This document shows positions 3,002-3,278 of a stretch of DNA of 6,001 nt, one piece after another. Each line of letters starts with the position of its first letter. The first letter of the stretch is position 1. Location: IMG/VR virus record IMGVR_UViG_3300013741_000057. One strand, given 5' to 3'. The notes under the pieces are model-generated. The model worked only from the letters and a program-made list of their open reading frames with translations, did no database searches and was not told where the DNA came from. The stretch is from a virus (taxonomy: Duplodnaviria; Heunggongvirae; Uroviricota; Caudoviricetes). Both the position numbers and the translations under genes were made by a program.

Positions 3002-3086
3002 TTCTGCCATTCCGGGACGTTACACTGTTCAGGCACCTTATAAAACGGGTGCCGGGCGTGGAAACCCGGAATTCACCAAAGCGCAC

Positions 3087-3109
3087 AACCGCGCTCTTGC
3101 GGTTTTTTT
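3087..3109 (+). terminator. Candidate intrinsic terminator or structured element (AACCGC-GCTCTT-GCGGTT plus 7 T)
   Basis: 6-bp stem with loop GCTCTT followed by TTTTTTT. If real, it would end transcription of the 2822-3001 gene and argues against frame-0 coding here. The stem is only moderately stable. Confidence 0.3.
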
Positions 3110-3278
3110 GTGTCATGAGCAGCATTACGCCCAAATTATGGTGGGGCGTGCAGGGCCAACTTCGGTTGGGCCGGGTTCTTTGGTGACCGGTATTTCCACC
3201 CCTGTACGTCTCACCACCAATAAGGTCGTGGAAAGCCTTGGTGGTGAGTTATTAAAAATCACCAAAGAGGCTGCCATC

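Follow-up and report, generated by a model that had tools for sequence, protein, structure and literature searches.

Secondary-immunity (anti-immunity) cassettes are known from four experimentally studied systems, namely immI of phage P1, the CI RNA of the satellite phage P4, the anti-immunity region of the phage-plasmid N15 and isrK of Salmonella Gifsy-1. In P1 and P4, RNase P processes a longer transcript to yield the mature C4 RNA. Here, we analysed the DNA upstream of a Rha-family gene in the virus record IMGVR_UViG_3300013741_000057 (Caudoviricetes; the whole stretch of 6,001 nucleotides is called the window), where a first-pass annotation had noticed three hairpins between positions 3002 and 3278 and had proposed a terminator, an antiterminator leader, an RNA processing site or a small RNA. 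We observed that this segment carries an isrK-type small RNA (sRNA) followed by a C4-type antisense RNA. It is very probably the control region of a secondary-immunity cassette, in which these two RNAs control an antirepressor, and the module type is that of P1 immI, P4 CI, N15 and Gifsy-1 isrK.

The published descriptions of these systems are as follows. Full repression of ant in P1 requires the C4 antisense RNA, according to Citron & Schuster 1990 as cited in PMC8198154. The CI RNA of P4 is excised from a primary transcript and can pair with the sequences on its two sides, seqA and seqC, as stated in the discussion of PMC4825925. For N15, PMC4488713 cites Ravin, Svarchevsky & Deho 1999 for the control of antC by a small processed RNA in anti-immunity. 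In Gifsy-1, the short IsrK ends at its own terminator, and the read-through isrK-orf45-anrP mRNA is translationally silent (PMC4825925, Hershko-Shalev et al. 2016). IsrK activates the translation of orf45 and anrP, and its supply in trans raises anrP translation about 140-fold; the counterpart of C4 is the stable RNA STnc1160, which seems to arise from the read-through transcript by processing (PMC4825925). Hfq binding and trans activation by IsrK were shown for Gifsy-1 only (PMC4825925).

Two RNA families in the segment

A covariance-model scan of the whole window returned two full-length Rfam matches in the segment (Table 1), one to RF01394 (model positions 1–77; gathering score 50) and the other to RF01695 (model positions 1–87; gathering score 45). 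The isrK-type RNA consists of a hairpin (3033–3052), a second hairpin (3052–3069), the single-stranded element b1 and an intrinsic terminator. It scores above the gathering cut-off and has the two 5′ hairpins and the rho-independent terminator of RF01394. Among 34 homologs, double changes were found in 7 of the 10 pairs of the two 5′ hairpins. The c4-a1b1 model of Rfam stayed below its threshold in the window (22.6 versus 46.7), because the clan-independent isrK model fits better.

The C4-type RNA has a closing stem of 17 bp (3139–3155 with 3200–3216) and two inner hairpins (3156–3169 and 3170–3191). Its minimum free energy fold (−44.6 kcal/mol, z −4.1) equals the consensus fold, and RNAalifold recovered the Rfam fold from 39 diverse C4 sequences with 99.4% of the cells paired. 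Compensatory changes were observed in 16 of the 27 pairs, compared to 8.9 in shuffled alignments, none of which reached this number in 500 trials. In a control where the pairing partners were slid, pairing fell to about 40%. The closing stem is conserved and is followed by CCACC, an arrangement compatible with the release of this RNA from a longer transcript by processing.

All three hairpins of the first-pass annotation could be read directly in the sequence. The first one (CCGGG at 3052–3056 with CCCGG at 3065–3069, loop of 8 nt) is the second stem-loop of the isrK-type RNA. The second one (AACCGC at 3087–3092 with GCGGTT at 3099–3104, loop GCTCTT, followed by seven T residues at 3103–3109) was also called in a terminator scan and is the intrinsic terminator that ends this RNA. 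The third one (GGCCAAC at 3154–3160, TTCG at 3161–3164 and GTTGGGCC at 3165–3172) is present, but its extent has to be reduced: in the consensus fold it is CCAAC-UUCG-GUUGG (3156–3169), the first inner hairpin of the C4 RNA, and all five of its pairs covary among the 39 C4 homologs. The G and C bases flanking it belong to the closing stem and to the second inner hairpin. The three hairpins are far beyond chance and fall within the full-length covariance-model matches. Conservation and covariation in homologs, which had been suggested as the check on them, are strong. They are, however, not independent elements, but parts of two larger folds joined by conserved complementarity; the first isrK hairpin and the C4 closing stem had been overlooked. 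Among the functions proposed earlier, the small RNA and the terminator are borne out, the former by hairpins 1 and 2 in the isrK-type RNA as well as by hairpin 3 in the C4-type RNA. An RNA processing site would fit by homology to STnc1160 of Gifsy-1 and the CI RNA of P4 (PMC4825925).

The remaining proposal, an antiterminator leader, was built on the string CGCTCTTG at 3092–3099, which does agree with boxA at 7 of the 8 positions. Together with a true intrinsic terminator lying between a cII-like gene and the replication genes, this string could point to a nut-like boxA/boxB antitermination site, or to a plain operon attenuator in the early-right transcript. We consider this scarcely credible. 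Octamers with one mismatch to boxA are at chance level in the window (5 found versus 3.25 expected; 40 of 200 shuffles reach 5). The octamer lies in the stem and loop of the terminator, which vary freely among homologs; these read CGCTCATG, CGCGCCAG and CGCTTCAG at this place, and no conserved octamer of the CGCTCTTA type was found in them above chance. Moreover, the isrK model itself ends with this terminator.

What is kept at this terminator is its form. The homologs have the stems AACCGC/GCGGTT, GACGC/GCGTC, ACACGC/GCGTGT or CCACG/CGTGG, always as a GC hairpin followed by six or seven T residues. These differing stems were misaligned by MAFFT, and the terminator helix was absent from the RNAalifold result for 34 isrK-like sequences; the evidence for the terminator therefore comes from the scan of the single sequence, from the Rfam model and from inspection.

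The pair of isrK and C4 RNAs was found at equivalent spacing in all the 14 related phage loci that were fetched, including N15 and P1, and likewise in P4 and Gifsy-1. More than 100 additional copies of the module turned up in a pattern scan of IMG/VR. In the public record of an Stx2 phage, the ncRNAs 'isrK' and 'C4 antisense RNA' are annotated at the homologous place.

A promoter-like site (Table 1) precedes the isrK-type RNA, and its −10 hexamer ends 6 nt before G3033. The pattern TTGAnn-N17/18-TAnAnT occurs at the equivalent place in 90 of 115 distinct homologous modules, and a homologous site lies just upstream of isrK in Gifsy-1, where the isrK promoter drives the downstream operon (PMC4825925). 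By this analogy, the site at 2998–3026 is a putative promoter of the module.

Recognition elements and proposed control of the Rha gene

The C4-type RNA carries two recognition elements, b′ and a′, and their complements are present twice, as the target copy a1/b1 in the isrK-type RNA upstream and as a2/b2 over the ribosome-binding site (RBS) downstream (Table 1). This is the arrangement of a C4-type system. The b′/b2 duplex extends over 11 nt with one G–U pair, and the b′/b1 duplex over 9 nt. The Shine-Dalgarno (SD) sequence overlapped by b2, AAAGAGG at 3264–3270, is spaced 8 nt from the ATG at 3279.

These elements were then compared among 105 distinct modules, which contain 37 b′ loops and 18 a′ elements in 54 combinations. 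In nearly all the 54 combinations, all 7 nt of a′ are matched by the cognate a1 as well as by the cognate a2. For b′, the number of contiguous Watson–Crick pairs averages 8.35 with the cognate b2 and 6.7 with the cognate b1, compared to about 4.3 for non-cognate partners. Nowhere is the module more variable than in the a and b elements, and yet these change together. This pattern is characteristic of antisense recognition with specificities that differ between phages.

The gene downstream matches Phage_pRha (PF09669; E 1.3e-30) as well as the Rha-like and anti-repressor Ant families of PHROG. With this domain and the similarity to antirepressor families, it is the predicted antirepressor and the probable regulated target of the module. 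Only 57 nt separate the C4 RNA from its ATG, and b2 lies directly on its SD sequence; the start codon (3279–3281) comes directly after the last position of the segment marked in the first-pass annotation. A run of N residues within the gene (3622–3631) stands in for about 44 nt of the homologs, which leads to a spurious frame break and a spurious stop at 3701. The early end of Rha in the window is therefore an artefact.

The following mechanism, in which the direction of regulation, the RNA processing and the promoter activity are modelled on P1, P4, N15 and Gifsy-1, can be proposed. Transcription would start near G3033 from the promoter-like site, and most of the transcripts would stop at the terminator (3087–3109), giving an IsrK-like sRNA of ∼77 nt that displays a1 and b1. 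Transcripts reading through would carry the C4 RNA, with b′ exposed in a hairpin loop and a′ in a single-stranded junction, and also the Rha leader with a2 and with b2 over the SD sequence. Pairing of C4 with a2 and b2 would block ribosome binding and so silence the antirepressor in the lysogen. With its copies of the targets, the IsrK-like RNA would pair with a′ and b′, counteract this block and turn on Rha translation. The a and b sequences would act as the specificity determinants that differ between phages. Both the RNAs and such a mechanism are already known biology, represented by curated Rfam families and the four studied relatives.

Several observations weigh against this proposal. A separate leader open reading frame (ORF) of the icd or orf45 type, as in P1 and Gifsy-1, is lacking, and the details of coupling may differ. 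The roles published for the a1/b1 RNAs are not the same, being a co-target for termination in P4 and an activator in trans in Gifsy-1. The single-sequence fold of the isrK part (−25.1 kcal/mol, z −1.4) is not unusually stable. A generic sigma-70 promoter scan of 2000–4200 gave no call, the site at 2998–3026 staying below the threshold with 8 of the 12 consensus positions. Finally, the Rha frame is open through both RNAs, which a purely non-coding reading does not predict.

An alternative structure was also noticed in the leader. The 3′ strand of the C4 closing stem (CTCACCACCAA, 3210–3220) can form an 11-bp duplex with TTGGTGGTGAG (3238–3248) in the Rha leader. The leader alone folds at −28.5 kcal/mol (z −4.0) with the SD sequence paired. 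This alternative pairing may correspond to the alternative structures A and B of Gifsy-1.

The whole window is the immunity and early-right region of a lambdoid Escherichia coli prophage, with the gene order taken from ORFs and Pfam matches (Table 1). The 311 bases around the hairpins are 100% identical to many E. coli chromosomes, and of 5426 complete E. coli genomes, 1349 contain a match. Among phages, the identity of this stretch is 99.4% with mEp460, 90% with ST64B of Salmonella and about 71% with SfV of Shigella. The DUF4222 gene starts with GTG behind the SD sequence GGGGGG, and its TGA stop lies within the −35 hexamer of the putative module promoter. Downstream of the replication gene is a PerC-family gene (4823–5317), the end of which is overlapped by a gene for a 119-aa protein consisting of a LexA DNA-binding domain alone (5284–5643). 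The window has a 10-N run at 509–518 besides the one in Rha, and a scan of it for tRNA and tmRNA gave no match.

Table 1. Features of the window with their positions, strands and the basis or remarks
Feature	Position	Strand	Basis or remark
Promoter-like site, −35 TTGATT 2998–3003, 17-nt spacer, −10 TACACT 3021–3026	2998–3026	+	Sequence
isrK-type sRNA (seqA / a1-b1 element)	3033–3109	+	Rfam RF01394, 67.9 bits, E 2.1e-13
a1 (GTGGAAA), loop of hairpin 1	3058–3064	+	Perfect complement of a′
b1 (TCACCAAAG), in isrK-type RNA	3073–3081	+	9-nt complement of b′
Intrinsic terminator, AACCGC/GCGGTT stem and T7	3087–3109	+	Terminator scan; last helix of isrK model
C4-type antisense RNA	3134–3221	+	Rfam RF01695, 83.6 bits, E 5.5e-16
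Conserved AUG at C4 5′ end; in frame with Rha, 47 codons, no stop	3138–3140	+	Sequence, Gifsy-1 comparison
b′ (TTCTTTGGTGA), loop of C4 hairpin 2	3176–3186	+	Complementary to b1 and b2
a′ (TTTCCAC), single-stranded C4 junction	3193–3199	+	7-nt complement of a1 and a2
a2 (GTGGAAA), target site in Rha leader	3228–3234	+	Complement of a′
b2 (TCACCAAAGAG, 3259–3269), overlaps Shine-Dalgarno	3259–3270	+	Complement of b′
Rha-family antirepressor-type gene, about 181 aa in intact homologs	3279–3790	+	Pfam Phage_pRha
S24 cI-type repressor gene	1116–1790	−	ORFs and Pfam
cro-like HTH gene	about 1860–2081		ORFs and Pfam
YmfL/CP76 cII-like gene	2113–2676		ORFs and Pfam
DUF4222 small gene, 59 aa	2822–3001	+	Pfam DUF4222, E 9.5e-14
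74-aa ORF	3787–4011		ORFs and Pfam
HTH/DnaD-like replication gene	4008–4826		ORFs and Pfam

An open frame through the RNA module

The Rha frame is open from an ATG at 2673 to the Rha stop. RefSeq (PGAP) annotates a 383-aa 'Rha family' protein there (WP_001087357.1), and several GenBank records (mEp460, ST64B, SfV and an Stx1 phage) do likewise. The translation of 3021–3311 matches Pfam PF10554 (Phage_ASH, 'Ash') with 60.6 bits against a cut-off of 26 (E 2.3e-16). On a plainly protein-coding reading, the segment would encode the 'Ash domain' at the N-terminus of a 383-aa Rha/Ash regulatory protein starting from this ATG, and the hairpins would be incidental. The absence of stops from all distinct lambdoid variants (see below) is also in favour of this. 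Protein-level conservation of this frame was the finding named beforehand as telling against structured RNA, and of it only the open frame and the PF10554 match were observed; a codon-position signature was not.

We observed no codon periodicity in 3033–3278, where the column entropy is 0.65, 0.70 and 0.63 at codon positions 1, 2 and 3; nor did this region have the third-position variation expected if PF10554 were a protein domain. Periodicity starts at ATG 3279, with 0.79, 0.47 and 1.05 over the first 20 codons of Rha, and it is here (3264–3281) that the conserved SD sequence and ATG are located. The substitutions upstream are compensatory for RNA pairing, and an intrinsic terminator lies within the supposed ORF. 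In P1, N15 and Gifsy-1, equivalent RNAs are present with the frame broken. In P4, PF10554 matches the 'cI' ORF exactly at the CI RNA gene, while epsilon, the actual derepression protein, belongs to another family. With all these, a plain protein-coding origin of the segment is highly improbable. We also rejected the first ∼110 codons of the long ORF from ATG 2673. The coding signal in this part (2822–3001) is that of the DUF4222 frame, in which variation is concentrated at the third codon positions (0.238 versus 0.067 and 0.053). The DUF4222 gene is nested, in a different frame, inside the annotated long Rha ORF.

A different question is whether the module, besides giving the two RNAs, also undergoes translation in the Rha frame. 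Ribosomes could begin at the conserved AUG at 3138 or, on transcripts of the early operon, at start codons that directly precede the internal promoter. The outcome could be an N-terminally extended Rha, or ribosomes that override the isrK terminator and the C4 block in lytic growth. We hold this to be possible, with the balance tilted somewhat to the negative side, and the evidence on it is as follows.

The lambdoid-class set comprised 63 distinct variants in 9–10 clusters at 80–85% identity, with a minimum of 52% (IMG/VR loci L016–L134 and phage loci L003–L011 of our collection). From the isrK start to the Rha ATG, the distance is always 240, 243 or 246 nt, and the Rha frame is stop-free in 63 of 63, while the other two frames have on average 4.0 and 2.25 stops. 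In a null model with independent columns, 44% of the sequences were stop-free, and the probability of the frame staying open is 0.06–0.7 per lineage; all these stop statistics are approximate, the variants being phylogenetically related and recombining. Among 170 module variants, stops were found in 0, 43 and 55 for frames 0, +1 and +2. In the P1-like, Gifsy-like and other non-lambdoid classes, the equivalent phase is often closed inside C4.

In-frame ATGs are present 16, 19 or 22 nt upstream of the −35 hexamer in at least 5 unrelated upstream contexts, several of them with SD sequences of the GGAGG type. In the class of the window, the homologous upstream start is a GTG (2979) with a poor SD sequence inside DUF4222, which goes against translation from there. 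Gifsy-1, on the other hand, provides a partial precedent: orf45, which begins at the equivalent AUG, is translated and is required for the translation of anrP, the nucleotide sequence of this leader being conserved and its amino-acid sequence not (PMC4825925). The module similarly shows no constraint at the amino-acid level, which counts against its translation.

We also came across tandem arrays having two or three complete isrK, C4 and Rha-like cassettes about 656 nt apart, in which the a/b specificity differs per cassette (L046 at 9289–11266, minus strand; also L031, L032, L084, L099 and L105). The 'long ORFs' in these arrays overlap by 4 nt, the upstream ATG overlapping the preceding stop, and this is in favour of translation of the module.

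In the P2-like phage vB_EcoM-569R5 (L012), the module controls a homolog of the P4 epsilon protein (PF25738; 76 aa, 1755–1985). An annotated 205-aa ORF running through the RNAs of this phage (1444–2061) overlaps the epsilon-like gene in another frame. As the latter is a genuine gene, open frames of this length can be accidental at such loci.

From these sequence comparisons, translation of the module is plausible, a little short of an even chance. The ∼250-nt isrK-C4 module of the lambdoid type (mEp460, SfV and ST64B) may thus be kept as an ORF in phase with the antirepressor for two uses, although we would not favour this over its being open for other reasons. The two uses, put forward with the same reserve, would be to give two regulatory RNAs when transcribed from its own promoter, and to serve as an unconstrained leader or N-terminal extension in transcripts of the early operon.

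The open frame has consequences for annotation. In P4, PF10554 matches the 'cI gene product' ORF (L136 8168–8584, minus strand) over aa 22–85, spanning the C4 match at 8420–8507. In both the phages checked, the 'Ash' match falls on the translated RNA module. The use of PF10554 as a marker of P4 epsilon (PMC8628076) led us to consider that Pfam Ash is this protein. We rejected this, as epsilon matches PF25738 and PF10554 matches the 'cI' ORF. 'Rha/Ash' has likewise been treated as a domain architecture (PMC8951638). The translated RNA module seems to underlie both the Pfam 'Ash' family and a PHROG profile. If the module does have the two uses, the 'Ash domain' might be the imprint of an open frame and not a folded protein domain, which we put forward tentatively. 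The PHROG profile phrog_821 includes the N-terminal extension. Protein-coding sequences are also annotated over C4-family RNA genes as a 'transcriptional repressor' in N15 (L014 1600–1890), as 'c4: CDS' in P1 (X15639.1) and as the 'cI gene product' in P4 (L136).

The RNAs described here add little that is new, and the practical value lies in the annotation, since RefSeq and GenBank routinely fuse the module to Rha. Beyond this annotation problem and the maintained frame, nothing in the finding calls for further study. Translation of the module, if true, would extend the orf45 case of Gifsy-1 to a class of prophages that is common in E. coli, Shigella and Salmonella, and would give lytic transcription a route to escape the antisense control of the antirepressor.

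Comparison with P4, N15, Gifsy-1 and P1

The seqA-CI RNA-seqC region of P4 scores 60.8 bits as isrK-like, 44.1 with c4-a1b1 and 74.9 with C4. Like the window, it has an ORF over the RNA that is annotated as a protein and is matched there by Pfam 'Ash'. The gene after the module is epsilon (PF25738) in P4 and Rha in the window. Furthermore, the reported outcome in P4 is premature termination of the replication operon and not occlusion of the RBS of an antirepressor.

N15 resembles the window in having an isrK-like RNA (62.4 bits) and a C4 RNA (78.8 bits) upstream of an antirepressor operon. Unlike the window, it has two small genes ahead of the antirepressor, and its frame does not stay open across the RNAs.

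The isrK-orf45 (STnc1160)-anrP region of Gifsy-1 has isrK (79.3 bits) and C4 (69 bits) at a spacing equal to that of the window, and shares with it the AUG at the C4 5′ end and an antirepressor-like gene downstream. The conservation of nucleotides rather than amino acids in the Gifsy-1 leader agrees with the absence of codon periodicity from the window's module. The differences concern the frame and the position. Gifsy-1 has a separate orf45 of 45 codons, the TGA of which overlaps the anrP ATG (ATGA). Such a separate orf45 ending in an ATGA overlap was not found in the window, where 47 codons lead straight into Rha. An in-frame TGA lies just before the AUG in Gifsy-1, whereas the frame of the window is open upstream too. 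The Gifsy-1 module is located downstream of Q, and that of the window between the cII-like and the replication genes.

In P1 and P7, immI has the same order as the window: a promoter, a1/b1, C4 with b′ and a′, a2/b2 over the RBS, and the antirepressor. P1 scores 68.8 bits with C4 and 51 bits with c4-a1b1, and its a1b1 is poor as isrK (35 bits). The specificity elements vary between P1 and P7 as they do among the relatives of the window. In P1, b2 lies over the RBS of the small gene icd, and ant is coupled to this gene; no small leader gene of this immI type is present in the window between the target sites and the antirepressor gene, and b2 is placed on the SD sequence of Rha itself. The AUG-phase frame through C4 is closed in P1 and open in the window, and the antirepressor families also differ, being Ant1 in P1 and Rha in the window.

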